Origin: Microthyrium microscopicum
Taxonomy: Eukaryota
Length of the DNA stretch: 64,000 nt
Direction of reading: 5' to 3'
Assembly: GCA_010405405.1 (NCBI GenBank)
Contig: MU004233.1
Coordinates: forward strand, 2,210,539 to 2,274,538
The position numbers and the translations under genes are program-made. The notes beneath the pieces were generated by a model. It saw only the letters and a program-made list of their open reading frames with translations. It ran no database searches and was not told the DNA's origin. Below are positions 1 to 64,000 of this stretch, piece after piece (the first letter of the stretch is position 1; each line of letters starts with the position of its first letter).

Positions 1-1111
1 AACTTATATGCGACCACCTTACTTCTCTACAAATGCTTTAGTTCTTTCTACTCTTGGTGGTCTTGGATATAAGGTTATCCAGGCCGATGTCGACACATTG
101 GATTGGGAATATGGTACGATATCCCCCAGCACACATAACTCTGACTATGGCTTCAGAAGTAGCAAAAACTCTGGTAATTCCCATCGCACTTCATGGCTAC
201 TATAAAGTGCGATGAGACTTCCACAACAAAAGCTAATACTATTTTCAAAACACTCGTTCAACATGTGAAGTACAAAGTCACTCTTTGGCCATGTTTTGTT
301 AACGAATTACAGGTCCCGAGGGTCAAATTGCGACCTCCGAGCAAATCTTTCAATCTGGTTTGGATTCTGGCGCAACTATCAACCTCTCTCACGATCCTCT
401 TCCCAACACTATCAGCGATCTCGTCCCATATATGATCAATGCTATCAAGGCCAAGGGTCTACGAGGTAAGTCGTTTGGCTACTTCCAATTCGAACTTTGA
501 AGCTAATGTGACTTAGGCGTCACTGTGGGCGAGTGCCTTGGCGACGCTGCTGGCAATTGGTACAAGACCACCAGCGGCGGCGGAGGAACCACACCTCCTC
601 CAAGCGGTGGTGCAACTTCTCCTGATGGAACATGCGGCGGTGCGAACGCTTACGTCTGCCCAAGCGGATTGTGCTGTTCCCAATATGGTTATTGTGATAC
701 GTAAGACCACCCCAGCGATGCGTTGGTTTCATTCCCAAGCTATGCTTTTCTTGAGCATTACTCTTTACTTTCAAGTACTATCTTACTAGGTCATGGCTGA
801 CATTTATTTGTATAGTGGAGCAGACTATTGCGGCACAGGATGCCAGTCAACATTTGGTACCTGTACGGGCTCTGGAGGAAGCACTCCACCACCTTCCGGC
901 GGCGGAACAAGTCCCGATGGTACATGCGGCGGTTCGGCCGGCTACTCGTGTCCCTCAGGTCTATGCTGCTCTCAATATGGATATTGCGACTCGTACGTCA
1001 AGCGTTTTCATCTTTGCGACCATTATCGAGTAGACGGTTGCTAACTTTTCATCTAGTGGTGCGGACTATTGTGGAACTGGATGCCAACCCACATTCGGTC
1101 AATGCTCTTAG
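1..1111 (+). CDS. Chitin deacetylase / polysaccharide deacetylase (CE4) with two C-terminal CBM18 (hevein) chitin-binding modules; 5' end lies outside the window
   Basis: Spliced exons <1-113, 313-465, 517-700, 816-992, 1057-1111. Translation gives YMRPPY...DTLDW, LSHD and VTVGECLGD (CE4 motifs), then two SPDGTCGG...CCSQYGYC...YCGTGCQ..FG.C repeats. GT-AG introns. Confidence 0.9.
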
Positions 1112-1757
1112 TAGGATTAACAAAAATAGGCAGACGGTGTTTTGATTCGATCCCTCATAATTTAATTTCTAGATTTGGGCGTTAAGCTTTCGAGCTTTTT
1201 AGCATAATACTCCTGGCGATTCAAGTCTATGGACTGGACGCCTTCAATTCCACATCAGCTTTTCTAGCTGTCTTTCCAAATTTGTTGTCATTCGTCAATC
1301 TTTTTGTTCCTCTTTTGACAATAGAACTTGGTCCATCAGGCTCCAATTCTTGGATTCTGTATAGTTGTGTGTTCCACACAAACTTGATGCGCAAATCTAA
1401 GAACGACTTGCTTCATTCTCAGTCCCGATTATTCGCTCAGTATGATGTATTCATATTAATCTCATTCAACATCAAAGCTGCCCAATTTTTTCTCATTCCA
1501 CCATCCTCCAGCCTTGAATACTGAGCTTGTGAGCTCATGCCGTAAACTCAACTGGATTCTACACAAGGCTGAGCGCCTTGAAGCCTAAGAATTGAGGGTT
1601 GTGATTGGCTGGAGCTAGCCAATCAGGTCCAAGCTCTTTTTACAGGCGGACGGACTTTGTGTGAATCGCACCCTAAAAGGCAACGTTGCTTGTTTCCATC
1701 GTCATCTTCTTTTCAACATTGCTCTTGGGGTTTCTGGAGCATTCAAAGTCTTTCATC

Positions 1758-3284
1758 ATGATTCAAGGCCTTCTCCAAGTAAGTCTACTCGAGGCGCTCA
1801 GCATCCATAGCAAAGCTAACAGCTCTAGGCGCTTACGCGCTTTCTGGACAACCCGGCTATACCATGGAAACGTCTTATAATCAGCTTCTCGGTCGGACAG
1901 TTTGTCTTTGAGAATTGGCTGTTGTTGCGCCAGTATGGTGTCTACAGCCGGAATACTGTGCCCAAGACTCTAACCAAGGAGGTGGACCAAAAGACTTTTG
2001 ACAAGTCTCAGGTTAGTCGCAATAGCATAACAAGCAAGTGAGCTCTTACTGACACAGACATGTATAGGAATACGGTCGTGCCAAAGCCAAGTTCCAATTC
2101 TTTAGCTCCCTCTTCAGTCAAATCAAGAACATCGCCGAAATACAGTACAATGCCTACGCTTATATCTGGACCCTGGTTGGGGGCTTTATGCTCCACCGAG
2201 CTCCAGAACGGTTCTCCGGTGAAATAACGCAGTCGCTCCTATTCTTCATTCTCTTCAGCTTCGCAAATACAATTATAGATATGCCGCTATCATACTATCA
2301 CCATTTCGTTATGGAAGAGAAGTTTGGATTCAATAAGATGACTAAGAAAACCTGGATCATGGATAAAGTCAAAGGACAGTTACTTGGAATTGCTCTCGGT
2401 GTTCCAATTGGTTCCGGTGTTCTCTCCATCATCAAATACTCTGGCGACTCATTTTTCTACTACGTCTGGATGTTCATGGTCGGCGTTCAACTCATCGGAG
2501 TCACTGTGTACCCAATTCTAATCGTACCTATCTTCAACAAACTCACACCACTTGAAGCTGGATCTCTTAAGACAGGGATTGATAATCTGGCCGCAAGACT
2601 GAAGTTCCCTCTTACCGAGTTGCAAGTCATAGACGGTAGCAAGCGCTCATCTCACAGCAATGCCTATTTTACTGGTCTGCCATGGAAGAAGACCATTGTG
2701 CTATACGATACCCTTATTGAACAACAGTCGGAAGAGCAAGTCGTTGCTGTTCTCGCCCACGAACTTGGACATTGGCACATGAGTCATACTACAAAACTCC
2801 TAGCTATCAACAGCGGCCATCTGTTCTTCATCTTTGCCATGTTCTCTGCTTTCGTCCACAACAAGCAATTATTCTCTGAGTTTGGCTTCGTCAAGGAGCA
2901 ACCAATTCTCATTGGATTCTTCCTATTTTCAGAGGTCCTGAACCCAAGTGAATGTCTTATGCAACTTTTCATGAACATCATGACTCGTTCATTTGAATAC
3001 CAAGCTGGTGATTCTAAATCATACTCGTGATTATATACATGTCTAATGTGTCTGCAGATGCCTTTGCCCAGAAACTCGGCTACAAGGTTGAACTGGCACA
3101 GGCCTTGATCAAGCTACAGATCAAGAACTTGTCTTCCATGGACGCCGATTACTTCTATTCCAGCTACCATCATTCACACCCCATCCTTCCGGAACGTCTA
3201 CGGGCTCTTGGTTGGGATGGAAGCGAAAAGGTACCAGAAGCTCCGGAAAAGAAGGATGAGAGCGAGAAAGCTGTCAAGGCCTGA
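1758..3284 (+). CDS. STE24: CAAX prenyl protease 1 (M48 zinc metalloprotease), multi-exon
   Basis: DGSKRSSHSNAYFTG, HELGH zinc motif, FEYQAD, YHHSHPILPERL. ATG at 1758 is followed by a gtaagt intron; further introns near 2012-2068 and 3008-3057. Confidence 0.95.
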
Positions 3285-3451
3285 TCGCGAGGTTCAACGT
3301 TGACCATCGACAACTGTAAATGTATCAATAGCGAGTCCTGGGGTAATGCAAAAGCTCATCATACCTTTGCTTTGACGGTTGGGCGTTGAGTTCGGTGCTG
3401 GAGTTTTGGTCCCAAGGAGGAATCTTGATAAATCTTCATAGCATGTAGCTT

Positions 3452-4366
3452 TCAATCAGAATCAGAGTCGTCCTCCGACTCCTCCGAGCTACTTGAATCG
3501 GCCTCACTGACAGGAGCGTTCTCCTCAGCCGTCTGCTCAACTAATTTGTCATACCCTCCATCCTCCGACGATTCATCCGAGTCCTCGTCCAAGCCATTCT
3601 TCCCCACACTTGTCCCATCCACATCCATCTCATCCACGCTCCCACCATCCAACCCCTTCTTCATATCAACTTCAATATTCATCCCATCCTGATTCTCCTC
3701 TCCCTGCCAGCCTACCGGCACATCCACCCCCGGCATCGTCTTACTCGGCACCATACTCCCTAGTCTCGACCTTACCACCAAATCCACCGTCTCCTTCGTG
3801 TGCTGCTGTCCAAACACATAATCCCCCATTCTCTTGACCTTCTTCGCTTTCCGTTCCTCCTCTTCTTTCCTATTCCGCTCCACCGCTTCCGCCACATCAC
3901 TCTCATCCAGTCCCTCTGGATTCGTCCACTTCTCAAGAACCTTCAAATACCCCATTTTCGCGCCCCCACTTCTCCCCGCCTTGCCGAAATCCAGTCCCCA
4001 TTTTGTGAATTTTGCGTCGGGATGTAGATATGCCTTGTCCTGGCTTTGCGCTACATAGCCGCTGATGAACTGGAAGACTTCATCGTCATTTGCATCGCGT
4101 TCTTTTTGGGCGAGCGTGAGGAAAGGTTCGGAATAGGCAGTCGTTCGGAAACGACGCGCTTGGGCGTAGATTTTTGAAACGATGGCTGCTTCTTTAGCAT
4201 TGCTTTGTGTTGGGTTCAGCGGCGGTTTTGTGGTTGCGGTGGTAGTGGTGGTGGTCTCTGGGGCATCTTCGCCGGAGAGGATTAGGGGGACGCCGCTGAA
4301 ATCGCGAAGGATATTTGGACCTTTGGATTTTGTGTTTCGGGCGTCGTTGTAGCGTGCGCTATTCAT
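3452..4366 (-). CDS. Hypothetical protein with acidic low-complexity C-terminus
   Basis: 304-aa ATG-initiated ORF with natural composition; no family recognised. Confidence 0.7.
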   Translation of the reverse strand: MNSARYNDARNTKSKGPNILRDFSGVPLILSGEDAPETTTTTTATTKPPLNPTQSNAKEAAIVSKIYAQARRFRTTAYSEPFLTLAQKERDANDDEVFQFISGYVAQSQDKAYLHPDAKFTKWGLDFGKAGRSGGAKMGYLKVLEKWTNPEGLDESDVAEAVERNRKEEEERKAKKVKRMGDYVFGQQHTKETVDLVVRSRLGSMVPSKTMPGVDVPVGWQGEENQDGMNIEVDMKKGLDGGSVDEMDVDGTSVGKNGLDEDSDESSEDGGYDKLVEQTAEENAPVSEADSSSSEESEDDSDSD

Positions 4367-5385
4367 GATTGCAAATATACTGGGTGTTTATTGCAGATTG
4401 TTGGTGACCATGTAGATTTTGGTGGGATAACTTTTTTTTGGGAGATGGAAATTCTGCGCACGGGCCAGGGGTGGTTTTGATACCTCGAAGTTGACCCTTT
4501 GCATCTGTTCAATGACCGTACAAAGCTTCCACATTGCGCCAACATGATACATACACGACTATTACGAGCCTCAATACCGAAAGGCATAATCCAGCAATTC
4601 CGTCAAAATGCGCTGAATGATCTGCAGATCTCTGCTACTCCGTAAGCCACGAGTCCAAAGAGCCAGAGGCTATTCTAATAACGCAGATGCTATACACGTC
4701 AATTCTCCCTCCTGCAACCTAAACGGCCTCAAATCACATCAATAACGACGAACATCGAATCGCCGCTATCTACAAACCCATCGATTGCACCGGTCTCCTC
4801 AAATCCGGCACTCCTAGCTCTGCAAGTGCGCAATCATCGGCGAGCGACCTTCAAACCGAGTCACTATACGCGGAAAAGACGACATGGCTTTTTATCACGG
4901 TTAAGAACGAGAGCAGGACGCAAAATACTGGCACTTCGGCGAGCGAAAGGATGCAGATTCCTAAGTCACTAGATGGAGACGCGTGTAATGAATAGAGCAC
5001 GGAGCTAGATTTGGACAAATGTGGGATTATTGTACAAGTATCCCAAAAATGTGTATGTCCTTGAACTATCAAAACGGTCTATCACATGTATATCACAAGC
5101 CAAGGGTCAAAAGTCAGCAGCGTCTGTCTTGGATCTTCTGCCTTTTAGCATTAATGGGCGAGGAATCTTCATTTTCTGATATATATGTTAGACAATGTAT
5201 ACCCGTGTAACAGTACTGCTTACCCTTCGTCGTTCCTTTCCAGAGTCGGTATTTCAACCAGACCCATTGGGCTACTTCCTCGTGTAAACACTGAGTGAAG
5301 CATCACCCATTTTAAGGATATGTAGTAGTGTGTTGTTGTGAGTGGCCATTCTCAAGGACTTTGAGATGGCGACCTGCATCTGTGA

Positions 5386-6024
5386 TCAATCGTCGTCGCT
5401 CTCGTCCATTTCCATATCTGCTTCATCTTCTTCCTCCTCCTCTTCTTCCATTGGGGCATCCGCCTCTTCCTCCTCGTCTCGAGCGCGCTTTGTGCCTGTT
5501 GAAGCAGCGGCAGGTGGCGCTCCACCAAACACGGACTGTTGAAGCGCAGTTCCCTTTTCGCCGGCTACAGGTTCCGTGGCGACTGATTTTCCAGTGTCCA
5601 TGACGGGTATCTTGAAAGTGCCGTCGAGCTTTGAGATGAACTCGGACTTGCCCTTAGCATACTGGATTCTCTGCGCTACATTAGCATTATGTACTAGCAG
5701 GCCATCATTTCTAACTACCATAGGTCTGCCCAAGAACTCAAAGTCATCTAATTGTCTGAGCACCTGGATTGCAGTTTGAATGTCGCGGAAGGTAATATGC
5801 GCCTGGCCGCGCATCTTTGAGGTCTTGAGGGCAACGATATCGAGAACTGGGCCATAGGTGGAGAAAAGGACGTATAGTTGGCGTCGTAAATCGTCTTTCT
5901 TTATCTTCTCGTTTAGGTTGGAGATGTAGAGTCTGACAGGTAAATATTCATGTAGCTTCAAGTGTGACTATGGGACGTACGTTTGGTTTGGCGTTCCGCC
6001 GGATTTCTGTGCCTTGGAGGCCAT
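5386..6024 (-). CDS. U2 snRNP B'' / U1A-family RRM protein
   Basis: MASKAQKSGGTPNQT|LYISNLNEKIKKDDLRRQLYVLFSTYGPVLDIVALKTSKMRGQAH...RIQYAKGKS; two short introns; acidic tail. Confidence 0.88.
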
Positions 6025-6268
6025 GTTTCAGTATAGAGATGTTACTAGAGCGAACGTATCTTGCGAGGACTTATATTATGGTGGGATGAGAGACAGAGAG
6101 GGATGTGGTGATGTTTTCAGTGGTGGTGGGAAGCATGGACAAATTTCAGCAAGGTTGAGGTTTGGTCTGCATCTTCAACCTCTCAACTTCAACACCGACA
6201 ATCTTCAACACATCTCCACTCTCCCTCCTCAATTGCGCCCGCAATACCGGCTCTGAGCAGCCTTAAAT

Positions 6269-7690
6269 ATGCGCAATACATTGGCCTCGTCGCCGGCGAG
6301 GCTAATATCACAATCTCGACCCGCCATCCGCTCTCAGTCTGTCACAATACCCCTCAGAATAGCTCAACGTCGGCAGGCGTCAACTGCTGCAAATCTACCC
6401 TCAAACCGCATTCGCAACTTCATATATGGCTCAACGCTCCTTGTTGTTGCCTCTACGGGCTACGTCTACATCACAGATACCCGGGCGTCAATTCACCGAT
6501 ACATCATACCCCCTCTAGCGCGCGCAATTTGGCCAGACGCGGAAGATGCACATCACGCAACAATAAAACTACTCAAAGAGCTCTATGCTCTTGGCGCAAA
6601 CCCTCGCGAGCGAGGCATACCATCTGGATCCTCTAGTTCTCTGGTAGAGATATTTGGTGAACCGTTAGCCAATCGAATAGGCATATCTGGAGGTCTGGAC
6701 AAGAACGCCGAGGTTCCTGATGCGCTCTTTGCTCTGGGTCCTAGCATTGTCGAAGTGGGTGGTGTCACTCCACATCCCCAGGGCGGCAATCCTAGACCTC
6801 GTGTATTCCGAATCCCGGGTGAGCAGGCCATCATAAATCGCTATGGATTGAATTCGGACGGCGCTGAAGTGGTGGCCATGAGGCTCAGACAACGAGTTCG
6901 TGAATTTGCATACGCACACGGACTTGGTATCGACGAAGAGGCAGAACAATATGTATTGAATGGGGGAGCCAATGTACCTCCAGGGTCACTTTCAAAGGGC
7001 AGGCTGCTGGCGGTACAAATTGCCAAAAATAAGATCACTCCTGACGACAACCTGGAGGCTGTTGTAAATGATCATGTGTACTGTGTGGAACAGCTTGGAA
7101 AATACGCAGACATTCTAGTCGTCAATGTCTCGTCGCCAAACACACCCGGTCTTCGAGCACTTCAGTCAAAAGACCCTCTCACGAAGATCTTATCTGCGAC
7201 TGTCAAGGCAGCCAAATCAGTTCCACGAAAAAACAAACCCGCCGTTATGGTCAAAGTTTCTCCCGACGAGGACTCTAAAGAGCAAATACGCGGCATCTGT
7301 GACGCCGTATGGATCAGTGGTGTGGATGGTGTCATTGTCGGCAACACAACCATGCTACGACCAGAACCCTTGCTTCATGGTATCGGCATACCGGCCAACG
7401 AGGCAGTAATACTACGCGAACAAGGAGGCTTCAGTGGACCACACTTATTTGAGCGAACGATACATCTCATCAAAACCTACAAGAGCATACTCGAACTAGG
7501 CCCACCAGAAGGAGTCAAGGGCGAAGGTCTCCAACAAAAAGTTATCTTTGCATCTGGGGGCATAACGAATGGGCAACAAGCTCTAGAGGCAGTCAAAGCG
7601 GGAGCAAGCATTGCAATGGTCTACACTGCTCTTACTTACGGTGGTGTAGGCACGATCTCGAGAATAAAAGGGGAGATGGAGTCTAGTTGA
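6269..7690 (+). CDS. URA9: Dihydroorotate dehydrogenase (quinone), class 2, mitochondrial
   Basis: Arg-rich presequence plus TM segment, GGLDKNAE, QGGNPRPRVFR, INRYGLNS, VNVSSPNTPGLR, VKVSPD, GNTT, GGFSG, ASGGI. Confidence 0.95.
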   Translation: MRNTLASSPARLISQSRPAIRSQSVTIPLRIAQRRQASTAANLPSNRIRNFIYGSTLLVVASTGYVYITDTRASIHRYIIPPLARAIWPDAEDAHHATIKLLKELYALGANPRERGIPSGSSSSLVEIFGEPLANRIGISGGLDKNAEVPDALFALGPSIVEVGGVTPHPQGGNPRPRVFRIPGEQAIINRYGLNSDGAEVVAMRLRQRVREFAYAHGLGIDEEAEQYVLNGGANVPPGSLSKGRLLAVQIAKNKITPDDNLEAVVNDHVYCVEQLGKYADILVVNVSSPNTPGLRALQSKDPLTKILSATVKAAKSVPRKNKPAVMVKVSPDEDSKEQIRGICDAVWISGVDGVIVGNTTMLRPEPLLHGIGIPANEAVILREQGGFSGPHLFERTIHLIKTYKSILELGPPEGVKGEGLQQKVIFASGGITNGQQALEAVKAGASIAMVYTALTYGGVGTISRIKGEMESS

Positions 7691-8346
7691 GAGACCTCTC
7701 TTCACTTTGTACAAATCACTCATGTTTATAGATACGGTAGAATTGCAACCCCTGTATGTGTAGTTGAACAACTCCCATCACGTAGCAGAAGAAACCACTG
7801 ATTACGGTCCCCTTCCAGAATCTCGAAGTCCGACATGAAACCAGTCCATGCACCTCTTTAACCGCACCTTTGAGCTACAGCTGGATCTACATCTAGAACA
7901 ACACCGGTATCTGCATCTCGATCATGAGCATCATGTCAATCACAAGCTGAGCCACACAAACCAACTGATTAAGCTGGGCTATAAATTCGGAGAAGTGATT
8001 TCATCAACTTTGCCACCCTACTCTCTTCTTCATAATGTTCAAACCGGACGGGTGGTCTATGATATCAGAGCCGAAATGTATGGGACCAAATAGAAGTTAG
8101 CACTACTTGTCTCCCAGCTTTATCATGTTCTCATATTTCACCTCAGAACATAGTTTGGTAAGAACACGTTTCGAACCAAAATGTACCGGTATGTTTCTAC
8201 CACGAATCATCTCAACCGTACTTAAGGTATAAAACCCCCACAGCGTTCTAGCGACATGTCAAAAACCAAGTTTCCAACACTTCCGTGACTGAAGCCCATC
8301 ACACTCTAAAATTCAGGACAAGATCTCCAACTACATATCAGCCGAA

Positions 8347-9658
8347 ATGGCCATTCTAGCTTTCATCCCACTATTTTTATTTACGATCGCCAGTTGCCTC
8401 GAACATGGTGATAGTGGCCATGGCCCTGGTGAGACTCCCTCTTGTCAATTTTCGCATTTGATGAGATCAGAAACAACTTCGTGGTTCCCATGGAACTTTT
8501 TTCTGATCGAATGCCATGGCTCCCATCACACTCGATGGCTTCCATAACCAAGTTACTTTGTAATCTTATGCTAACAGTTTCAGGTCCCTTCACACCGGGT
8601 GATCATCGATTGACCCCTTCCCCAACGACCTTTCAAACGCTGACTCACTCTGTTTCGACGGAAAGCACTACGAGCACAATGTCCGCCACCACCACGGTTA
8701 AACCTTGGGTAAGATTCACTCGTGCCAACACATTCCTGGACAACATTCGATGTAACTAAAACCATCACATCTCCCATCGCACTCGATGGTTTTCATAGAA
8801 TGCCTTTCTTATTGAGTGCTATGGATGCCATCGAATGCGACGGGCATTTTATGGTTTTACTCCGAAAAGACTCGATAGCCTTATCAGCTAGATTTTTCGA
8901 CAACATCCACTTGTAACAAGAACGTCATATCTGCCATCGCATTAGATGGCCCCTATGAAAGGTGTTCTTGATCGAGTGCGGTGGTTGTCATCAAATGCAA
9001 TCGATATCTCACTGTTCTACGCTGAAGTGACAAAGTCGTCTTTTCAGAGCATATTAGCTCTGAGCGTACTCCAGAGTAACCTTGAACTAACAAATCCTAG
9101 GCAATCTGGCCCGTTGCAAGCCTTGCAGGCCTTGCAGGCATGCTCAATCACCCATATCATCATTACAGCCCAGCGCATCAAGGAGTCAAAGTACCAATCA
9201 ATGCAAATTATCCCGCGAACAGTGATGGCCTAGTATCGAAGCCAACTTCGACAATGACAGCAACAACAACTCGCCGCAAGTTCGTGACTCGCGGCATTGA
9301 TATCAGAAGTCCTGTAGGGACCCCAACGCCTCCTGGTCCTACTACTTGGCCAGGCATGCCCCAGGAAACATCCAGACCTTCATTTACCAAATTGCCTAAC
9401 CTAGTAGGCTGGATAACCGTCCTTACTCCTAGACCATCTGAAACGTCAAAGACGGAGACTGCTTCAACGACCACGACTCTTCCTTCGCTCGCAACACAGG
9501 TTCAGGAATTGGAGACGGAGACTGCTACATCGTCCTCGGCTCTTCCTACCACGTCAACAGAGCCATTGATGTCATGGAAACCAAACGTCATGGGGCCATC
9601 ACCTAAGAAGGGTTGGAAGTGGTGTGGTGATCATATTTGTGGAGTCAACACTTTTTGA
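8347..9658 (+). CDS. Putative secreted Ser/Thr/Pro-rich protein (254 aa) with a short C-terminal W/C motif
   Basis: Exons 8347-8428, 8584-8708, 9101-9658 splice in frame (765 nt). Hydrophobic N-terminus MAILAFIPLFLFTIASC. Both introns have GT donors, CTAAC branch sites and AG acceptors. TATA-like tataaaa near 8228. Confidence 0.72.
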
Positions 9659-10307
9659 TCAATATCATAGACCCATAAGGTGAGTTGAATGATGTTTCCA
9701 TCCTCGCAATCAAAAGACAATGAAAATGGCGCGCTCCCATCAAGTACGGTGTCTCCCATCGCACTCTATACTGAGAGAATGCTGAACTTCCCACCGCATT
9801 CGCTGGAGAGTTAACGATTCTACACATCTAGAGGGAACTGAAGCACTTGGGTCTAAAGCGTAGTAGATGGTAGCCACCGCACTTGATGGAGTGCGCCCAG
9901 TCGTGTTGTACATGTACATTATACACTTTTGTTCATCGATTTCGGGCTGTCTACATGTCAACTTTGATCACTAATGCTTCCAGGGTAGCTGACTCCGATA
10001 TTTCCTTGTTTTGGTAGTGTGTAATACAATTTTCTCTCTCTTTAATACTATAGCTCTTGAAAGGTTTTAAGTCTGAGAGCCGTCTCTTAAAGATCACTTT
10101 GAGCGTTGATTCCGTAAGGAGTAATTCTAGGTATGGACTGCTTCGAGACACTGTACAATCCAAGGAAAACAATCTGCTCGTGAGGACAGGCTCTGGGTAC
10201 AGTAGATGGTGGCCTTACTTCTCCATTTTGACCACTTATTGGCTTACGCCTCAAGCAAATTTCTGGAGAGAAGTCACAGACCATCCGTAACCGTTGTTGA
10301 GACTATC

Positions 10308-17989: not shown

Positions 17990-18158
17990 TTATATTCCCT
18001 CATTCTGCTTGGCCATTTCATTCCCGAAATCTACCATGTTGTCCCAAGTAATGAAGTCCAGCACATCCTGCCTCGTCAGCGGAATATCGTCGTCGCCAGT
18101 GTTCGCCACAGGCATTAGCAAACATCGGTCCGAGCTTCCATCAGGCAAAGTAACACAT
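17990..18158 (-). pseudogene. Detached 3' end of the deaminase-MYND gene, separated by the retrotransposon block
   Basis: Removing 18159-35764 joins ...DDVRLMC to YFA*WKLGPMFANA. A second frame gives LTRQDVLDFITWDNMVDFGNEMAKQNEGI*. In-frame TGA at 18141-18143 and an apparent frameshift. Confidence 0.75.
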
Positions 18159-18310
18159 TGTTGTAAGAATATGAGAAATAAAGCGTGGTTGATTACTATG
18201 GGAGTCTAAGGGCCTAATATAGTTTTTAGGACACGCTAATTAGAGGATTATATTATCTCTAATTAGGTCCTATAATTATTTAATTTCTTAGTATATTCTT
18301 TATTATAATA
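18159..18310 (-). repeat. LTR of outer Gypsy (3' LTR in element orientation)
   Basis: Direct repeat of 35608-35759; the differences I could see are C>T/G>A transitions. Confidence 0.92.
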
Positions 18311-21300: not shown

Positions 21301-22223
21301 AAGATAATTTATAGAAAGAATCTCTACTTTTATAGTATCTAGTAATAAAAAGTTAATACCTTAATAGTTTTCTTTAAGATTAGATACTTATTTATATAGA
21401 TTTATTACTTCTAGTATAGGTATATAAGTAATTAGGGTAGTAATCTTATTATAGCTCTTTAGCTTTAATAATTTATTTCTCTACTTTTATTATTTTAATA
21501 ATATAAAGATTAATTCTTAATCCACTATAGCTAAAAGGATTTCTTCTCTTACTAAGCTTTAATTTAAAAGAATAAAAATATTATTATTCTTCTTTTTTAC
21601 TAAATCTTATAGTACTATAGAATATTCTATTTCTTATATAATTTACTTTATCTATTCTAAATTATTTTATACTAAAGCTAAAATTAAGTTAAAAGAAATA
21701 TATTTTAACGCTATAAAAGTTTTTAAGTTACTATTTAGGTTATAAATAGTTATTATAGAATATTTCTTTTTTTATTTATAAATATCTACTTTAACTTTTT
21801 AAACTTTTCTTATAAGGTTAAGAAAAATAATAAATAGACTTAAGTAATATTTTCTAGTACTAAATCTCTTAATATTAATTAACTTTACTAAAAAGTTTTT
21901 TAATCTATTAAGCTAGTCTTTCTTAGTTATAATAGATATATCTATCTTACTTTTATATTTTTTATTTAGAATACTTTTAAGATTATTCTTACTTAGTTAT
22001 TTATATTTAAAATATAGCTAGTTCTAGTAATAGTATTTTTTTTTTTTTATATATATATTTATATAAAGTAATTCTTATAGATAAGATTTCTAAGTACTTT
22101 TTTATTAAGTATCTTAAAAGTATATATTCCTAAGAAATAAGCCTTTAAGACTTTATAAAGACTAAACTATACTATTTAGAACTTAGTTTTATTTAAGTTT
22201 TTAAAGAGTATATAAGAACTTAT

Positions 22224-29531: not shown

Positions 29532-29596
29532 ATTAGACTAGATTAGACTAAACTAGACTAGACTAGACTAGACTAAATTAAAATAGAATAGATTAG
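29532..29596 (+). repeat. (GACTA)n pentanucleotide microsatellite in the 3' region of the inner Gypsy
   Basis: tagactagattagactaaactagactagactagactagacta... Confidence 0.75.
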
Positions 29597-39437: not shown

Positions 39438-40454
39438 GTCACCATGATCGTTCAACTCTGTTGACAAACAATCCAAGGTTTTGCCAAACAAATCGCAAGA
39501 GAAGGATTGGGTAGCAAGAACGGGAAGAACAAATTGAAAAGAGACAGCTAGAAGGAGATGGAAATACCGCAAAATCAGGTACTTAGGTGGGAGAAATTGC
39601 CCAATGCAACCTCGAAACACCACGTCGATATCTGTTTCCATCATCTGAGAGTAGTAAATATACAACAGTCAACTGACCAAGTATAGAGTCCCGGAAACTA
39701 AGCAGGCATCGCATACCAGTCAAGTCCACCTACCAGTGTTATATGTACCTAGAAATCCATAGTCCACCTCTATTACGCCGCAACCTCCCATTCCGTAGCC
39801 AGGTTGACAACGGTGGTCAAGGACCTGTAGTTGAGGTGCTTTCAACTGTCACTACATTAACCCGCAGTCACTGCTAGCCCAGTTTGTAATTATGGATGCT
39901 ATATATATCTTTGGTTTCTGCTTCTTCCACCATGTCCGAGACTTCTTTCCCACAACAATACCTGCAATACCCGCTTCCTTACCATCACTTTATTCAATCA
40001 ATAATCAGAGCGCAACCCTTGAGAAAAGAATTTGATCGACATGACATCGGGTATGGCCTTTCTAATATTCAGAAGCTATCATTACTGATGGACCCTCAGA
40101 AAACGAACTCGCAAGTCTGGCAAGTCTGACTTTGCAGCCAGACCAAGACGCATCGCAAAAGATCGCAAGCTCTTCAGAGGAAGAGGTAGACAAATCATCA
40201 CTTGATCAAGGTAAGAAGCTCCATTTCATACCCAATTCTGGATAAAACTTGCCATATCGAAAAAGGTGATGGCTGTCTGAGCAGACTATGCTCCTTATAA
40301 AAAGCATTGTCAAGCGAGTGCAATGATTTCCACTGGGTGCTATCGCTTTTATAAGCTGTTCTATGGTTTCCTCCGAAACAATCCGAATTGTTTTTGCGTA
40401 GTGTTTTGGCTCTTCATTGTCTTATACTAACGACTTTCAGGCTTTCCAGGGGAT

Positions 40455-41777: not shown

Positions 41778-42967
41778 TGGAAAGCTGTCTTACTCATTAA
41801 TCGTGCGGAACAGGTTAGGTAGTGATAAATGTTGCTAGCATAGTCCCATTATTCGATCTGAAAGTGTAATCTCGCCCTGCGTTTATCACGACCTATTGCG
41901 GTTTGCAGATACGATCTGTCGGTTTAAAACTTAGCGACCTTGTGAAAACATTTCGTAAAGCTCTCAAATGTTCACTCCTTCTGACTCTGCGTTCGTGAAC
42001 AAAGCAGCAGGATCAATGATTCCGCGGTAAAAACTACGCGCGTATCTAGATCATTAGACGATAATAAACTACTCGAGGGTCCCATCTTAGTTGAGCAATT
42101 CAATCGGTGAGTTTGAGACCTTTGAATCAGCAGCAATTGCCATCGCACTCTTTAGCTCGATGTAGCACCATGGCTTCGAGCACAGCATATAGCTCCCATA
42201 CAATCCGATAGGCATTCAGGGCATATCTCGAGTTTCCAGCCCAGCATGGTTTTGCTACCGCGCTGTACAGCTTCCATGTCCCTTAGTAGTTCCAACAGCC
42301 TCTGGTTGAGCTTTGAGCCCAAATGCCGAAATGTTTTTCGGCCAATGTAAGCTTTGATTACACCCGTATGCCTAGCACATCCCATGTGCACTGAACCGGC
42401 TTCTAGGGGACCATTGCATCTGCAAACGTACGTAAAATTGCAGTTGACAGATTTTTTGGAACCTATCTTTCGACCGCCAACAGAAAGAGCATGAATTCAC
42501 TGTGGCGTTTACCATATTTCTGTTTGCGCGAACTCATAGTCTGTTACATCCTGAAGTGATGATTGGCATTGATCTGAATCTGTTGGTAATGTACCAGGTA
42601 ATCAAGCTCAGCAAGGGGCATGTCATGAACTCATGGTGCTTATACAGGTATTTGCGAAATTGTTTTCCTTTGATCGGCACAGGTGATTGGAGTTTCAATT
42701 GTTGGTTCGCGGTCACTGACGCTCGTGTTGTTGCAATCGTGTCAGTCAACGAAAAGACCACGAATTGATATTGGCGGTCACCACATTCCTGTTTACCTCA
42801 ACTTCTGTTTGAATCTTATTCTGCATTGGAGGCTCTTGCCGTTGGTATGATGTGTATATAACTCTTTGGAATCTTTGGTCCTCTGTTCCATTCTTATCAC
42901 CACAACACTTCTCATATCTTTACCATCAACCTCTCTAGGTACAACAATCTACAGCAACAAACAAAAC

Positions 42968-45675: not shown

Positions 45676-50567
<4,892 letters not shown>

Positions 50568-54950: not shown

Positions 54951-57900
54951 GGCGATTGTTAAGTGGCCTCAGCTAATTCTGAGGTGGCCCCAGAAGGATC
55001 TTAGGTGGCCTCAGCCGCCGTTATCCAAACGATTATCCACTAATCCTGTATCGATCTAACCTTAAGTAGCCTTAGTCTAACCTAATATAGTAATATCTTA
55101 AAAAATAAAAATAGATTACTATTAAGCCTTACTTCTAACTTCATATCTAACTTTATATTCTTAATTACTACTACTACTACTATAATTACTACTTCTTTAT
55201 AATATAATTACTTAACTATAAACTAACTAAAATAGATTAATTTAACGTTCCTTGTATTCTTAATCTTCCCTTTATTAGCGTTATTTATCTTACTTAGTAG
55301 GAAGGCCTTAACGCTATTTATGCCTATAATGAAATTTATAAATATTATATTAAATAAAAGCGTAGTTCCTTTTTTAAATTAAACCCTAATAACGTATATA
55401 TTTAGTATATTAAAGCTAGTAAACCCTCTTATTATAGAGATACCTTTTATAATATTAAAAGCGTAAGGAATTATTGCTTTTATAACTATTAAATTATATA
55501 AAGTAAGAATAAAGCTCTTTTAGAATAAATTATTAATTATTAAGGTACTTATTATGACTATCTTATAGTATAAATAAATACTACTTACGCTACTATTTAA
55601 TTATAGGCTTAGGAAGCTTTAGAAATCTATAATAAAGTTACTATTTTATCTTTAAATAAGAGGACGTTACTAAGTAAGATAATAGTAACCTTTTAGCATA
55701 AATATCCTAACCTTATAATTACTATTTAGGACATCTATAATATAAGAAGCCTTAATAAGATAATTTAACTCGCTAAATATACCCTAATTAATATTATAGT
55801 AGCTAAATTACGTACGTACTTTAAATTTATATATAAAATCTAAGTATGCTAAAATAAGCTTATAAGCTTATTATTAGTATCTAAATAGTCTATTAAGCTT
55901 TATTAAACTTATTCTAATATCTTACTCTTTAATTTAATATACTAAACTAATAAATATAAGATGCTAATATTCTATATTAGTATAGTAATAATAATAAATA
56001 AATACTTTAGTATAGCGTTTATATATATAATAAGTAAAGATAAAGTATAATATTAGTAGGCGCTAGAAGCATTTAATAAGAAGGTTTAACTAAGAATTCT
56101 TCTCTTAAATATTATCTTTATAAACTATTACCTAGCGCTAAAGAACGCCCTTATGACGTTAATTCCTAATCCTTAATTAATATACTAATACTACTATAAA
56201 GAGGTTATTTGTCTTTATATTAAGATATATTAGAATCGTCTTTAATATCTTAAGGATCCTATAGGAAGAGCTATTGCTACGTAGACTTAGGAATTAGCCT
56301 ATAAGCTATAGTTAAAAGTAGCTAAAATTCCTCTATTATTAGAGTTAATTTACTAATAAATTTATAGGTTCTTTACGCTTTAATAGAGCTTAAACTAAAC
56401 GCTACGTAGAAATATCTTAATACTATATTAAAAGTAGATAGTAAAGGTCTTTATTTTATATTATATCTTAGGAAGACCTAGATACTATAGAAATATTAAC
56501 TTTATAACGCCTATATCTTTAGAGTCTGCTATTTAGGTATAAAAATAACCTCTTTACTAGAAGGATTATATAATGCTATTAAAGAATAAATTTAAAAGAA
56601 TAGTAATTTTCTCTCTGTCTTAAATACTCTAAAGGACGCTATTAAGGCTTAATATAAATGACTAAAAGATACTATAGGCTATAAGGCTAAATACGCGTTA
56701 TATAATCTACTACTATAGCATCTTTCTATTATATTAAGAATATTTTACTACTTTATTAGTAACTATGCTCTAGATTTAATAAAGAAGTAATATCTTAAGT
56801 ATAAAAATAAGGAATTTAGATGAGTTAAACGTATAGAGTACTCTTTAATCTTTACTACTACTATAGAGTTACTATATAGTTATACTATTAGGCTAAAGCT
56901 TACTAAAGACTTCTATTAGGTTCTTAATAAGGCTAATATTAATTCTTATTAGTTTTATAATTAATTTAAGTCTAGTAGAAGGTTAAATTGTCTTTTATAA
57001 TATCCTATTAGTTAAGATTTATTACCTAAAGCTACGTTAGGAATTTAGCCTTTAGATATTATTTATAGTAGTAGACGTCTTTAAGTATCTTAGCTTAGCG
57101 CTTAGCCTAATTAACGCCTATAGGCTTTAATAGGTTAAATACTATCTTATACTAAGCTTTAGCCTATTCTATTGCTAGCAATAGTTAATATAGTAGCTAT
57201 AGTGGCTATAGCGTCTTAAGAATTTATTAATATTAAAGATTTAGATACTAAACTTATATAGACTTACGTTATAAAACGCTAGCTACTACTAGAAGCTATA
57301 GAAGTAATAGATCTTATAGTAGAATTAGGCCCTTCTTTATAACTTTAGCTAGATTTAAGCCTATAACCTTCTTTAGCTAAACGCTAATACTAAAATACTA
57401 CTCTTCTTATTTAACCTTTACCTAAATAAGTATTAAGTAAACGCGTTGTAGCTCTATTAAAGAAGGTGCTTTAGATTAAAGTAGACTATTAGGCTACGCA
57501 AATTAAAGAGTTAGAACGCTATTAAGCTAAATAAGAGCGCTATTAGGCTAATCTTAAAGAACGTCTTACTAGAGCTAAAGCTATAGCTATAGAGGCCTAA
57601 ATTATTACTTTAATAACTATTATTACTATTAAGATAATAATGTATAAAGGGGTTACTATCGCTACTACTACTTACGCGTTAGTTTAACTAACTAGAGACT
57701 TAAATAAGAGAGGAAAAAGGCCTATTTAGTAGTATTTAGGTAGATGTACTTAAAGATAGTTTAATACTAAGAATTCGCGTAAAGATTATATATAAATTAG
57801 CTATAAAATACGTATATTATCTTTAGTAGTAGCTAGTAGCTTTAGATCTCTCTAAGGGCCTAATTTGGGTATAAAATAAATATTTTTAGAGTTAATATTC

Positions 57901-58093
57901 TACGCGCGCCCTTTAGGCGTTAATACAATATAATAACCTAATTTTTGAGTAATATTTAACTACCACTAGGGCCACCTTAGATCCATAGTTAATTTCCTAT
58001 TTGGGTTTAGATCCATTGGATAACGGCGGCTGAGGCCACCTAAGATCCTTCTAGGGCCACCTCAGAATTAGCTGAGGCCACTTAACAATCGCC
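54951..58093 (+). mobile_element. Mutator-like DNA transposon (MULE), 3143 bp, RIP-inactivated
   Basis: 78-bp TIRs (54951-55028 / 58016-58093, one C>T mismatch); 9-bp TSD TTTCCATTG (54942-54950, 58094-58102). Transposase relics: D.TY.TNKYKMP (~55931), EGLHNAIK (~56558), SWIM-like LPCSH (~56869). Confidence 0.93.
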
Positions 58094-61763: not shown

Positions 61764-63074
61764 ATGCCTCCCCAACTCTCCACGCCCCTCTGCCAACTCC
61801 TAGGCATCCAATACCCCATAATCCTCGCCGGCATGGCCCGCACATCCGGCGGCCCCCTCGCCGCTGCCGTCAGCAACGCCGGCGGCCTAGGCGTCATCGG
61901 TGGTCTAGGATACACACCTTCCCAACTCACCGAAATTATCACCGAGCTCAAGTCCCATCTCCGCGATCCCTCTTTACCGTTTGGCGTGGACCTTGCGTTA
62001 CCACAGGTGGGTGGCGGCGCACGCAAGACGAACCATGATTATACGCATGGACAGCTGGATGAATTGATTGACGTGACGATCAAAGAGGGCGCAAAGTTAT
62101 TCGTAAGCGCGGTGGGTGTGCCGCCGAAACGGGTCATCGAGCGGTTACATGAGGCGGGCATTTTGGTGATGAATATGGTGGGTGCGCCGAGACATGCGCG
62201 CAAAGCACTGGATGCGGGGGTTGATATTGTTTGTGCGCAAGGTGGTGAGGGCGGTGGGCATACGGGTGATATTGCGAACTCTATACTCATTCCGTCTGTG
62301 GTGGATGTTGCGTCGCAATATACGTCTCCGCTTACTGGGAAACCTGCGATGGTGGTGGCGGCGGGCGGTATCTATGATGGGCGTGGTCTCGCGAGTAGTT
62401 TGATGCAGGGCGCGCAGGGAGTTTGGGTGGGCACGCGGTTTGTGGCGAGTACGGAGGCTGGTTGTAGTCAGGCGCATAAGGAGGCGGTGGTGAGTGCGAA
62501 GTTTACGGATACGTTGAGGACGTTGGTGGTTAGTGGGAGGCCGTTGAGGGTCAGGATGAATGAGTATATACAGGGCTGGGAGGATCGGCCGGAGGAGGTG
62601 AGGAAGTTGACTGAGCAGGGGATTGTGCCGATGATGAAGGATATGGAGGAGGAGAAGGATGTGGATTTGCCGTTTTTGATGGGCCAAGTGGCGGGTATTG
62701 TGCAGGATATCAAGGTATGTTGTTGATGTCACGATGTGTTTTCGGTGCAAGTGCTAAAGAGTCGTAGCCGGCGAAGGAGATTGTTGACGATATGGTAAGA
62801 ACCCCTATTGACAAAAGTCGTCAATACACCAGTTTCTGGTGTCCTTCTTGGTGCTCCCACGGCACTTGATGGCTGCCAAAACACTCGATGGTTTCCGAAG
62901 CATGCTATGGCATGGCTTTGCAAATATCCAACATCGTGGTTTCAGCTCGTGCTGGCTCCAATGGCAGACAGCAGTAACTTTTGGTTATCATACACTAACA
63001 TGCTTCAGGTCACACAAGCAGTCCAAATGTTGAAGTTGGGACAATCATACACAGGAGGTCAGAGCAAGTTGTAG
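61764..63074 (+). CDS. Nitronate monooxygenase / 2-nitropropane dioxygenase family, C-terminal SKL (PTS1)
   Basis: LAAAVSNAGGLG, AQGGEGGGHTG, VAAGGIYDGRG, VWVGTRF. Exons 61764-62714, 62768-62794, 63009-63074; ends QSKL*. Confidence 0.92.
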
Positions 63075-64000
63075 CCAGCCCATCACGTCCAATCGACTCT
63101 TGCAACACAGTTGGAGAAACCTGGTTGTATAGACTACAGACCTGACTAAAAAGCACGATTATCAAGTATAAGAAAACTAGCTAATTACATACCAAACTTG
63201 CCGATCTAGTCGTCCCCTTCTAGTCTGCTTATGCATAATAGGCGATGCATGTCTTTAGTTGCCAACTTCATCTTTAAGTTACAACTTCTTTTGGCCACTG
63301 AATATCGAAAGGTTGTTGGTTAGCAACCACAGACGATGTATATTGGTCGCCTTCTAGTACTTCAATGCGTAATGCGAGACCTATGTTTCTAGTCGGTAGC
63401 TTAACCAACATGATGGTATATTCTGATGACCACTGAAGATGGAATAGTTGCCGCATGCGCGTTAATGCGTGATACGAGATGTGTTTAGTTGTTAGCTCCA
63501 GCCTTCTAGCTGGAATCTGCTTATAGCCATTGATTATCAAAGGATTGTTTCATGGAAATATGCCTAATTGTAGACGCAAGTCTCTGATCGCTGGCTTAAC
63601 CTTTAGGCTGGTATCTTCTCCTGACCACAGAATATAGGACACTTGTTGGATGGCATTTCGTAGGCGGTGAGAAATCCAAGAAGCCCCTGGCAGGCAAGGA
63701 TCATTTTGAATCCTACTTTATACAACGTAGAGTAAACTATACGACATCCAACACCACCGAAATGGAGACATTGTATTGCGACACAGTAATGTCTGGAAAT
63801 AAGATTCCAATGTGTAAAAGAACACGACAGTACCATTGCTTTCAATGAGTCCCAAGTTCCTTATCCCACCTTGAACTGCTACACAGATATGTTCAATAAT
63901 CTATCCGCCTTCAGCCCACGGCACTTACCGATGTCTTTGGCACGCAAAAGCCAGCTTCTCATATTGAAAGACGTATGATAGTTACAATTAAGTTTCAGCC

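Follow-up and report, generated by a model that had tools for sequence, protein, structure and literature searches.

The 64,000 bases of Microthyrium microscopicum DNA analysed here, which we call the window, raise the question of why a near-palindromic 17-mer should recur in the long introns of genes that are functionally unrelated, namely those for a chitin deacetylase, a secreted Ser/Thr-rich protein, an SRR1-domain protein and a nitronate monooxygenase. A sequence-only reading had described the motif as dispersed in both orientations, and this is real: allowing up to three mismatches to CCCAYCGCAYTYGATGG, there are 12 matches on the two strands of the 64,000-base window, against a mean of 0.24 in shuffled sequence, and none of 100 shuffles reaches 12. 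The weight-matrix scan with shuffled controls proposed in that reading gives, for this window, 15 sites at a score of at least 14, where 50 shuffles average 0.72 sites and never exceed 3; the matrix was derived from the same 12 matches and is circular for those 12, and it adds the sites 8504(-), 42139 and 62875. The sites form clusters of 2-4, have 6-4-6 dyad symmetry and are better conserved than the flanking sequence; across the 15 copies there are 24 transitions and 22 transversions.

The positions given earlier for the copies nearly all stand (Table 1). The exceptions are a copy at about 711-727, which is absent at up to 4 mismatches, by the matrix at a score of at least 8 and by both profiles; one at about 40311-40326, which scores only 9.1 as a 17-mer but belongs to a degenerate full unit, 40258-40386; and the sites at 8295-8311 and 63915-63931, which are partial. 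The motif had also been said to avoid exons and transposable elements altered by RIP. No copy is found in the coding exons of the window, nor in its RIPed blocks, even by a pattern tolerating C>T and G>A, so to that extent the statement holds; it fails for 8295-8311, which is placed between the spliced joints 8187>8243 and 8427>8583 and hence in an exon of the mature RNA rather than an intron. The weak copy at 42139-42212 reaches an nhmmer E of only 0.16-2.8.

Table 1. Copies of the motif and the introns that contain them (window coordinates; (-) marks the reverse strand).
Feature	Coordinates	Strand	Details
17-mer matches (up to 3 mismatches)	180, 200(-), 8522, 8773, 8828(-), 8933, 8969(-), 9737(-), 9755, 9790, 9873, 62856		
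199-nt intron, chitin deacetylase gene	114..312	+	arms 180-196 (+), 200-216 (-); profile hits
115-nt intron, doubtful member	701..815	+	spliced in X7 contig; no motif or profile hit
Solo partial copy (12 of 17 letters)	8295..8311	+	5' UTR exon of gene F; matrix score 12.1; 12-mer identical to 8522-8533
155-nt intron 1, gene F; shortened copy	8429..8583	+	arms 8504-8520 (-), 8522-8538 (+)
392-nt intron 2, gene F	8709..9100	+	units 8756-8875, 8917-9034; arms 8773, 8828(-), 8933, 8969(-)
Putative 304-nt intron, gene F 3' UTR	9680..9983	+	variant unit, long inverted repeats 9725-9897; 17-mers 9737(-), 9755, 9790, 9873
Predicted 230-nt intron upstream of SRR1-domain gene main exon	40211..40440	+	degenerate full-length copy, unit 40258-40386
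Weak copy upstream of second SRR1-domain paralogue	42139..42212		matrix score 18.2 at 42139, 8.5 at 42196(-)
214-nt last intron, nitronate monooxygenase gene	62795..63008	+	17-mers 62856, 62875; profile hits
Solo partial copy (12-mer)	63915..63931	+	downstream of nitronate monooxygenase gene; 12-mer identical to 62856-62867; matrix score 9.0

Judged from the sequence, the repeated unit is about 105-130 nt long and contains an internal inverted repeat, each arm of which has the 17-mer as its conserved core; the unit is not, as had been proposed, a 17-bp REP-like palindrome. Within the intron at 8709-9100 one unit aligns with the other (8752-8871 with 8913-9031, E 9e-11) and the unit aligns with its own reverse complement (E 1e-7), as does the variant unit at 9728-9896 (E 4.6e-9); the inverted repeats span 106 nt at 8756-8861 and 169 nt at 9728-9896. 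A single-sequence nhmmer query with 8770-8874 finds 40272-40385 at an E of 0.004. These repeats are internal to the intron, and no inverted repeat is formed by the intron's two ends. The hairpins predicted at 8765-8850 (-33.5 kcal/mol, z -4.9) and at 170-225 (-20.9 kcal/mol, z -5.5) are stable, and minimum free energy z-scores for five long introns are -6.6 (the whole intron at 8709-9100), -2.4, -2.0, -1.8 and -1.4, with only -0.9 for the predicted intron at 40211-40440 and -1.6 to +0.6 for short introns. The 6-bp stem with a 4-nt loop noted earlier is present, but the dominant fold is the long hairpin between paired copies. Co-variation between the arms is weak (4 paired against 19 unpaired changes, p 0.08).

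Intron sizes were checked against spliced contigs from runs X5 and X7; DNA run X4 lacks the joints that these contigs show. Ordinary introns in the window measure 45-65 nt (11 RNA-supported short introns) and element-bearing introns 155-392 nt, and all three RNA-supported introns longer than 150 nt (114-312, 8429-8583 and 8709-9100) carry strong copies. The earlier picture, in which introns are typically about 50 nt and copies lie in the long ones, is thereby upheld except at the 115-nt intron, in which no copy is found. A GT..AG joint for 114-312 is present in X5 and X7 contigs, and this intron is skipped in the public protein model P0121. Gene F, which encodes the secreted Ser/Thr-rich protein (CDS 8347-9658), has an intact reading frame only with both 8429-8583 and 8709-9100 removed. 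The former has a GT..AG joint in an X5 contig, and the profile hit within it (8482-8546, E 3e-6) was obtained before that copy was added to the profile; at the latter the X5 contig picks up again at 9100, and the intron contains an internal tandem duplication with a period of 160, its collapsed length being 232 nt. The exon structure around the last intron of the nitronate monooxygenase gene (61764-62714 / 62768-62794 / 63009-63071) is the one obtained by alignment to 5 named homologues and to the public model P0001 (347 aa, 100% identical). For the predicted intron at 40211-40440 neither protein-model nor RNA support was found, and an intron at 9680-9983 is hinted at by the series GTGAGT...CTAAT...CAG and by an X5 contig that ends at 9679. 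Introns of the family have CTAAC-type branch points 8-9 nt before the acceptor. The intron at 701-815 has only GTAAGA and a C-run at its 5' end in common with them, and its position in a duplicated CBM18 module corresponds to that of the 64-nt intron at 993-1056. The family is represented in the window by five CDS introns in four unrelated genes and by one or two other loci.

The resemblance between these introns extends beyond the inverted repeat. Four of them (199, 232 when collapsed, 230 and 214 nt) are collinear and can be aligned from the 5' to the 3' splice site; the first arm lies 66, 64, 64 and 61 nt from the 5' splice site, in unrelated genes, and the second arm 96-117 nt from the 3' splice site, while the inverted-repeat core begins about 47 nt inside the former and stops about 95-115 nt before the latter. 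In global alignments compared with shuffles the whole introns give a z of 12.1 (0/300), the 3' part without its last 16 nt a z of 4.8 (0/300), the 5' spacer without GTRAGA a marginal z of 2.1 (8/300) and an intergenic control a z of 0.4; when only the flanks are aligned, locally, no significance is reached (z up to 2.4), and pairwise global identity between the introns is only 44-55%. An A at position +6, which was noticed first and tested afterwards, is found in 6 of 7 long introns and in none of the 11 RNA-supported short introns (p 4e-4); it occurs also in three of six less secure, predicted short introns, giving 6/7 against 3/17 overall (p 0.004). Exonic flanks of the form G-intron-G accompany 6/7 long and 2/11 short introns (p 0.013), and the last 30 nt show anchored identity at p 0.007. 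Alike 3' ends could also stem from selection that favours consensus signals where introns are long. Short direct repeats (2-3 nt; GGT, AGG or GG) are present across the boundaries of all six long introns compared, against 2 of 11 short introns with G flanks; they overlap the splice-site consensus. Since the similarity, weak but significant, reaches both splice sites, the element is most likely the intron itself and not the inflation of an older intron. Of the suggestion that a tiny mobile unit inflates introns, what survives is a dispersed multicopy family; the unit is longer than 17 bp.

Many further copies lie outside the window. Among the contigs of DNA run X4 that match 1-10200, 108 of 128 are less than 99% alike and match in part only, and depth in X4 rises 3- to 6-fold solely over the motif-bearing bins. 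At least 24 contigs begin their match at 9725-9729; in X4, X5 and X6 many contigs are similar to 9725-9765 and 9855-9889 only and differ beyond them, and in a 433-nt contig the stretch 8773-8838 recurs as a 66-nt copy with 6 differences. Parts of the units are matched by about 100 contigs from other places in this assembly, in settings that may or may not be intronic. The variant unit at 9725-9897, which is outside coding sequence, is the closest to the abundant genomic copies. Within the window five of the seven loci fall in CDS introns, and these account for about 10-14% of the non-coding DNA (P 1.4e-4 to 7.6e-4). The copies are un-RIPed, although RIP has heavily altered the larger repeats of this genome; the motif family is dispersed, multicopy, tied to long introns of unrelated genes and untouched by RIP, as had been supposed. 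No near-identical copies, which would be a sign of recent activity, are seen in the window, where the closest pair (the two tandem units of 8709-9100) is identical in 82 of 121 aligned columns. This pattern fits old copies in a degenerate family like that of Dothistroma septosporum, rather than an active one.

The explanation that we regard as probable is a family of introner-like elements (ILEs), now decayed, of which the 17-mer is the mark: repeats with the size of an intron, about 200-230 nt, that have spread among unrelated genes. Such an element would bring its own 5' splice site (GTRAGA), branch point (ACTAAC) and acceptor, so that a sense copy in a transcribed gene would be spliced out and do little harm. 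Its internal inverted repeat has two arms, each about 40 nt long with the near-palindrome CCCATCGCACTCGATGG at its centre, and the pre-mRNA is accordingly predicted to fold into a long hairpin. The copies would have been made by insertion of the whole element, that is by intron gain, and would then have decayed by substitution, by deletion (the 155-nt copy) and by internal duplication (the 392-nt copy). That the 17-mer can still be recognised may reflect constraint on it in the source elements from which new copies were made, and not a need for it in each resident copy. Candidate routes of copying include a transposase acting on the palindromes, reverse splicing and capture at DNA breaks.

Intron gain is suggested by the nitronate monooxygenase gene: among 17 metagenome relatives whose contigs are at least 5 kb long, 15 have an uninterrupted open reading frame at the site of the intron at 62795-63008; this comparison is of one intron and presumes that the metagenome proteins were called without splicing, as we take them to have been.

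An ordinary MITE without splice signals might instead have entered short introns and UTRs that already existed and lengthened them, exonic copies being purged. The internal inverted repeat, its arms about 40 nt long, is MITE-like, one unit is placed in the region of a 3' UTR, two solo fragments lie outside introns, and a long MITE reaching near the branch point would also account for the significant similarity of the 3' part. Repeats of this sort, similar in sequence and found in regular introns of unrelated genes, are noted in Sclerotinia sclerotiorum, Fusarium graminearum and Rhytidhysteron rufulum in PMC3609843; those repeats sit in otherwise unrelated introns, whereas in Microthyrium the intron ends and layout are common as well. 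We nevertheless hold the MITE explanation to be unlikely. What is left of a long intron outside the unit (84-158 nt) already exceeds a normal 45-65-nt intron, and neither the constant spacing between 5' splice site and first arm nor the +6 A and G flanks held in common would be expected; the uninterrupted site in the metagenome relatives likewise tells against it. Some 11.6 kb of inter-CDS DNA contains no full copies except 9725-9897 and the weak site at 42139, although introns are the far smaller part of the non-coding target. No target-site duplication beside the inverted-repeat core is seen by eye. The longer parent elements with the motif, which the earlier reading proposed to look for, are absent from the 64-kb window, also by the RIP-tolerant pattern, as is an autonomous partner that has matching ends and a transposase; a 3.1-kb element at 54951-58093 contains unrelated 83-nt repeats.

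That the palindromes are functional sites, either bound by a dimeric protein with affinity for DNA or RNA or acting as hairpins in the regulation of splicing or of transcript fate, would suit their dyad symmetry, their clustering and their conservation above the surroundings. The unrelated functions of the host genes, the free decay evident in the substitution counts and the arm pairs broken more often than kept make this quite improbable, as do the roughly 100 copies elsewhere, which suit a repeat family better than a regulon, and the promoters, in which no copies are seen. Long introns of short-intron fungi often house snoRNAs, and the hairpins are stable, so the long introns might host small structured RNA genes (snoRNA- or microRNA-like hairpins) of which the motif is a part; given the same copy number and free decay, and a layout in which no box C/D or H/ACA arrangement is seen, we judge this extremely improbable. 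The Rfam comparison suggested earlier finds no family at gathering score anywhere in the window, and a permissive scan of 8400-10000 gives one spurious match (E 0.3, 19.7 bits against a cut-off of 45).

Bacterial REP and BIME sequences are extragenic palindromes of 20-40 nt mobilised by RAYT transposases. The Microthyrium family is like them in appearance only, being made of short imperfect palindromes that are dispersed, alternating in orientation and non-coding; it differs in being eukaryotic, nuclear, intronic and removed by the spliceosome, with a unit about ten times longer. Membership is rejected on the grounds of a fungal host (spliced nuclear genes, Dothideomycete proteins) and an intronic unit of about 200 nt, and no RAYT-type transposase is implied.

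Returning to introner-like elements, the proteins closest to those of the window are all from Dothideomycetes, and thus from the class in which ILEs were first described, in Fulvia fulva, Dothistroma septosporum, Zymoseptoria tritici and others; the papers on them (PMC3609843, PMC4457414) count degenerate families as ILEs. The likeness lies in multicopy spliceosomal introns with canonical splice signals in unrelated genes of the same fungal class, several-fold longer than regular introns, with a stable predicted structure and decay toward ordinary introns. The Microthyrium family differs from them in sequence, in its 44-55% identity in place of near-identical copies, in arms each centred on a 16-17-nt palindrome and in that gain was examined at one intron. 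Zymoseptoria families, as classified in PMC12130899 (Dataset S2), are hAT-type elements of about 120 bp with terminal inverted repeats that 'co-opt both' splice sites. They too have a short inverted-repeat core within the intron, with both splice sites outside the repeat; in the example given there (splice sites 33/172, TE 44-157) the core lies about 11 nt inside the 5' splice site, compared with about 47 nt in Microthyrium, which is without demonstrable terminal repeats at the intron ends or a 2-bp duplication flanking the core. The sister (stw)introns of Hypoxylaceae, as PMC8469720 describes them, are likewise proliferated introns, with inverted repeats of 45-55 nt each with a short palindrome, WTTCTAGAAA, with a symmetry that fades in older copies, with no target-site duplication and absent from Rfam; they differ in belonging to the Sordariomycetes, in sequence, in having terminal repeats and many nested twin introns, and in numbering dozens of copies against about 100.

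The Microthyrium introns would therefore be a further case of a known kind, the fungal ILEs, in a lineage with none listed before. The earlier statement that no named fungal element has this consensus agrees with the literature, in which, as far as our searches reach, no family with this 17-mer is described. A 2025 survey gives 0 introner families for Microthyrium microscopicum, the species to which the proteins of the window match, and 0 also for Dothistroma septosporum, which has 298 degenerate ILEs.

The case that the long introns are excised rests in part on four public runs compared with positions 1-10200: X4, a DNA run of the likely source; X6, a low-depth run; and X5 and X7, whose RNA label is a guess and which we treat as transcript assemblies because GT..AG joints are present in them and missing from X4. 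In this interval X5 and X7 give evidence for eleven short introns, each 45-65 nt long, and they back the splicing out of the intron of the chitin deacetylase gene and of the shorter long intron of gene F, which encodes a secreted Ser/Thr-rich protein. For the longer one an X5 contig picks up again exactly at 9100, where that intron ends, and only the removal of both leaves gene F with a single open frame, of 254 codons. The public models P0121 (chitin deacetylase) and P0001 (nitronate monooxygenase), which match the window at 100% identity, leave out introns 114-312 and 62795-63008, respectively, and five named homologues cross the latter junction without a break. Strong copies of the near-palindromic 17-mer are found in all three RNA-supported introns longer than 150 nt, as well as in one annotation-supported intron, and in none of the eleven short ones; the sequence-only reading, that ordinary introns here are short and the long ones bear the motif, is upheld by these counts.

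Features of the window, with coordinates and properties
Feature	Position	Length	Properties
Long intron, chitin deacetylase gene	114-312	199 nt	5' splice site to first arm 66 nt
Hairpin in this intron	170-225		-20.9 kcal/mol, z -5.5
Further introns, chitin deacetylase gene	701-815; 993-1056		spliced in X7 transcript contig
Introns upstream of gene F	7754-7818; 8189-8243		spliced in X5 contig
Gene F, CDS	8347-9658
Shorter long intron, gene F	8429-8583	155 nt
Longer long intron, gene F	8709-9100	392 nt; 232 nt collapsed	tandem duplication, period 160; 5' splice site to first arm 64 nt
Hairpin in this intron	8765-8850		-33.5 kcal/mol, z -4.9
Inverted repeat	9728-9896	169 nt	E 4.6e-9 (nhmmer)
AT-rich block	18000-35700	17.7 kb	GC 0.16-0.29; RIP indices 1.65 and 0.10
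Direct repeats edging the block	18161-18308; 35610-35757	148 nt	86%
Pair inside the block	22226-22450; 29657-29881	225 nt	88%
Tandem SRR1-domain genes	39890-43878		31.6% identical over 285 aligned residues
Predicted intron, first SRR1-domain gene	40211-40440	230 nt	5' splice site to first arm 64 nt
Pentafunctional AROM gene	45687-50567 (-)	1,626 codons	one frame, intronless
RIPed element	54951-58093	~3.1 kb	83-nt inverted repeats, 96% complementary, each with three GTGGCCYCAG copies
Ordinary intron, nitronate monooxygenase gene	62715-62767	53 nt
Long intron, nitronate monooxygenase gene	62795-63008	214 nt	5' splice site to first arm 61 nt

The motif itself recurs far beyond expectation. Twelve copies of CCCAYCGCAYTYGATGG with at most three mismatches lie in the 64-kb window, against a mean of 0.24 in dinucleotide-preserving shuffles and with none of 100 shuffles reaching twelve, which rules out chance as their source and bears out the recurrence claimed earlier. 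A weight matrix, which is built from the same twelve copies and is therefore circular for them, returns 15 sites at a score of 14 or more (shuffle mean 0.72) and adds three strong ones at 8504-, 42139 and 62875. Nearly all of the coordinates first proposed from the sequence proved correct. The copy placed at about 711-727 has to be withdrawn, as neither the motif, the weight matrix nor the profile scans support one there, and that at 63915-63931 is present as a 12-letter fragment only. The claim that exons are free of the motif holds for coding exons, none of which in the window has a copy, and fails at 8295-8311, where a 12-letter fragment is present in a UTR exon and not in an intron.

The unit is not, however, the 17-bp palindrome that had been described. 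The copies tend toward inverted pairs that form stable predicted hairpins, and nhmmer aligns 8752-8871 with 8913-9031 (E 9e-11), with its own reverse complement (E 1e-7) and with 40272-40385 (E 0.004). A profile of three units retrieves 8482-8546 (E 3e-6) and 165-212 (E 0.009), with weaker matches at 62865-62897 and 9750-9825, and finds no match in the exons, ordinary intergenic DNA or AT-rich blocks of the window. Because of this inverted pairing and of these nhmmer and profile matches, the unit is much longer than 17 nt: the 17-mer is the best-kept core of each arm of about 40 nt within an inverted-repeat unit of 105-130 nt. Among the arms of resident copies, 19 changes break pairing and 4 co-vary, so that the signal of compensatory change is weak (p 0.08).

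Whether the element is the intron, or a repeat dropped into an older one, is a question for which similarity of the intron ends is the key test. Four introns (8709-9100 after collapse of its duplication, 40211-40440, 62795-63008 and 114-312) are collinear, with nearly constant distances from the 5' splice site to the first arm and 96-117 nt from the second arm to the 3' splice site. Their global alignment over the whole intron gives z 12.1, a score that none of 300 shuffles reaches; the 3' part without its last 16 nt gives z 4.8 (0/300) and the 5' spacer without GTRAGA z 2.1 (8/300), while four intergenic control stretches give z 0.4 (113/300). Aligned locally and by themselves, the intron flanks show no significant similarity; it is the global collinear alignment that is significant. 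At the donor, position +6 is A in six of seven long introns versus none of the eleven RNA-supported short ones (p 4e-4, for a feature spotted before testing); with the addition of six short introns that are less secure and predicted by frame continuity, 3 of 17 short introns have it and p becomes 0.004. An exonic G at both flanks is likewise seen in 6/7 long versus 2/11 short introns (p 0.013), and anchored identity over the last 30 nt is greater among the long introns (p 0.007). Selection in long introns might be an alternative cause of their consensus-like 3' ends.

The history of one insertion site could be followed in the nitronate monooxygenase gene, its main exon serving as query. JGI metagenome genes are called without splicing. 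Of 120 homologues among the matches listed, we kept the 37 that come solely from JGI metagenomes and dropped 83 (NCBI, Logan, ENA) that are spliced or whose calling is unknown. Both C-terminal junctions are uninterrupted in 34 of these 37, and the other three (P0002, P0004 and P0005), at 86-87% identity the closest relatives among the matches listed, are broken at the first junction or read through it, just like the window, P0005 reading into unrelated sequence. Short contigs might be spliced transcripts, and the count was therefore restricted to contigs of at least 5 kb, where 15 of 17 homologues are uninterrupted. Since the site is uninterrupted in these, the 214-nt intron is, to judge from the sequences compared, not a widely shared old intron, and a gain in this lineage would fit, assuming that the metagenome genes were indeed called without splicing. 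For the chitin deacetylase site, the sole foreign homologue that turned up comes from a 1,064-nt contig, possibly a transcript. Within the nitronate monooxygenase gene, the ordinary intron of 53 nt seems to be common only to the three closest metagenome relatives (break at ...DIKV) and absent in 34 of the 37 homologues among the matches listed, and it looks lineage-specific as well.

Copies are also numerous outside the window. Of 128 X4 contigs matching 1-10200 (55 of them only partly within it), 20 are at least 99% alike and represent this very locus; the remaining 108 are more divergent, and most of them are placed by way of the depth bins. X4 depth climbs from some 1,025 and reaches 3,125 over 8501-8840 and 6,311 over 9521-9860; in at least 24 contigs the match starts at 9725-9729, the left side being partly conserved (...CGACAAAAT), and one 433-nt contig carries a copy of 8773-8838, 66 nt long and with 6 differences from it. 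The X5 transcript assembly and X6 show the same loose ends. As a repeat, the motif family is multicopy in the source genome. In the metagenomes the 17-mer scan gave at least 120 loci that are chance matches, with a single match in each of the 80 tabulated; against the unit profile, nhmmer aligned only some 20-45 nt around the motif in the 120 loci (best E 0.014; median GC 0.58), and none of them adds an outside copy of the family.

Within the window, CDS introns contain five of the seven loci (P 1.4e-4 to 7.6e-4), one of the five being predicted only and the 9725 and 42139 loci being scored as non-intron. The estimate uses a rough gene map outside the RIPed blocks (about 29.5 kb coding, 11.6 kb between CDSs and 2.1 kb of listed CDS introns), on which CDS introns before insertion make up only some 10-14% of the non-coding target. 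The RIPed blocks at 18.0-35.7 and 55.0-58.05 kb hold no copy even with a pattern tolerant of C>T and G>A, and the reported absence from RIPed TEs thus stands. Element-bearing introns have TpA/ApT ratios of 0.4-1.1 and (CpA+TpG)/(ApC+GpT) ratios of 1.1-1.6, the RIPed blocks 1.65-1.7 and 0.10-0.15; the motif-bearing copies are not RIPed, and substitutions among them comprise 24 transitions and 22 transversions. A length threshold for RIP is known from Neurospora, and the escape of units of 155-392 nt fits a threshold of that type. A longer parent with the motif in its TIRs, as had been envisaged, was not found in the window: the RIP-tolerant motif is not in excess in either block, and the element at 54951/58011 is rejected as parent, its TIRs being unrelated to the family. 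That element is a probable DNA transposon, now dead, with subterminal binding repeats. The larger, AT-rich block is edged by direct repeats and holds a second repeated pair.

These features match those of the introner-like elements (ILEs) of Dothideomycetes as described in the portions available of two reports: multicopy spliceosomal introns in unrelated genes, with canonical signals, at least about twice the normal length, a stable predicted structure and fast decay toward ordinary introns (PMC3609843, PMC4457414). All close protein matches are from Dothideomycetes, and the 100%-identical model is attributed by its source to Microthyrium microscopicum. As in the present family, Zymoseptoria ILEs in the accessible part of Dataset S2 have an inverted-repeat core inside the intron, an example being a hAT-type TE at 44-157 between splice sites at 33 and 172 (PMC12130899). 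The sister (stw)introns of Hypoxylaceae are built alike, with a short palindrome within each 45-55-nt inverted repeat, and lose their symmetry with age (PMC8469720). Our copies are degenerate rather than near-identical, and in this are closer to D. septosporum than to the active families of Z. tritici. A 2025 survey lists no introner family for M. microscopicum and none for D. septosporum either, and therefore misses old families. Literature searches for the literal motif returned only two chance 12-mer matches in plant primer and marker lists, and the portions seen of literature naming the species with 'intron' contained nothing on such elements; the family was not found in the literature searched, and its kind, the fungal ILE, is already known.

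The repeats, which are homologous, hairpin-forming, of intron size, spliced out, multicopy, intron-biased and not RIPed, most likely arose as follows. An element that brought along a donor, a branch point and an acceptor would be neutralised by splicing whenever it inserted in sense into a transcribed gene; resident copies would then decay by substitution, deletion (to 155 nt) and internal duplication (to 392 nt). Because resident arms break pairing more than they co-vary, we place the constraint on the 17-mer in the copy-producing source elements, where it may be needed while each resident copy may do without it. Transposase acting on palindromes, reverse splicing and double-strand-break capture are candidate copying routes, and the 2-3-nt direct repeats at intron borders cannot discriminate between them because they overlap the splice consensus. 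More speculatively, and with the balance of probability well against it, the sharply conserved, dyad-symmetric 17-mer (CCATCG-N4-CGATGG per arm) might be the cis-acting recognition site of the ILE-copying machinery, one candidate for which is a dimeric protein, transposase-like or structure-specific, with its gene at another place in the genome. If so, the family would provide the first defined handle on ILE movement. On this speculative reading, the subfamily resembling 9725-9897, for which some 100 matches reach 85%, may still be active.

A plain MITE that had landed in older introns is an origin we regard as unlikely, given the constant spacing from splice site to arm, the intron ends held in common, a lack of copies between genes and an orthologous site that is empty. 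That the copies are functional sites for a protein or an RNA is very improbable, since their hosts are unrelated, the copies decay freely and there are about 100 of them. Intronic small-RNA genes are the least credible origin, and find no support from Rfam, in which no family reaches its gathering score in the window and a permissive scan gave one spurious weak hit.

Where new spliceosomal introns come from has long been debated, and intron birth is observable in few systems, fungal ILEs being one. The present family brings into their range a Dothideomycete lineage scored as having none in a survey of thousands of genomes, and shows that families, even old and decayed ones, are recoverable through a small conserved palindromic core and shared splice-site ends. 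Should the 17-mer reflect constraint in source elements, it would offer a concrete candidate cis-element of ILE mobility. Such elements also account for the outlier long introns of a short-intron genome and flag broken gene models, as at the chitin deacetylase gene, where the public model stops at 701-815 and RNA contigs go on.

That model, P0121 (285 aa), ends in ...YGYCDT at the start of this intron and looks truncated: within 1-1252 the X7 transcript contig splices this intron and 993-1056, which have equivalent positions in a duplicated CBM18-like module, and runs through two such modules to 1252. An X5 contig spans the dihydroorotate dehydrogenase gene into gene F with two spliced introns between the coding regions, and the transcript over 7691-8346 is either a long intron-bearing 5' UTR or read-through transcription. 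A search at E 1e-10 with the SRR1-domain gene returned no homologue, the window's own product included; the first of the two tandem genes has the predicted element-bearing intron, and the weak copy at 42139 lies upstream of the second. The intronless AROM gene has neighbours with several introns.
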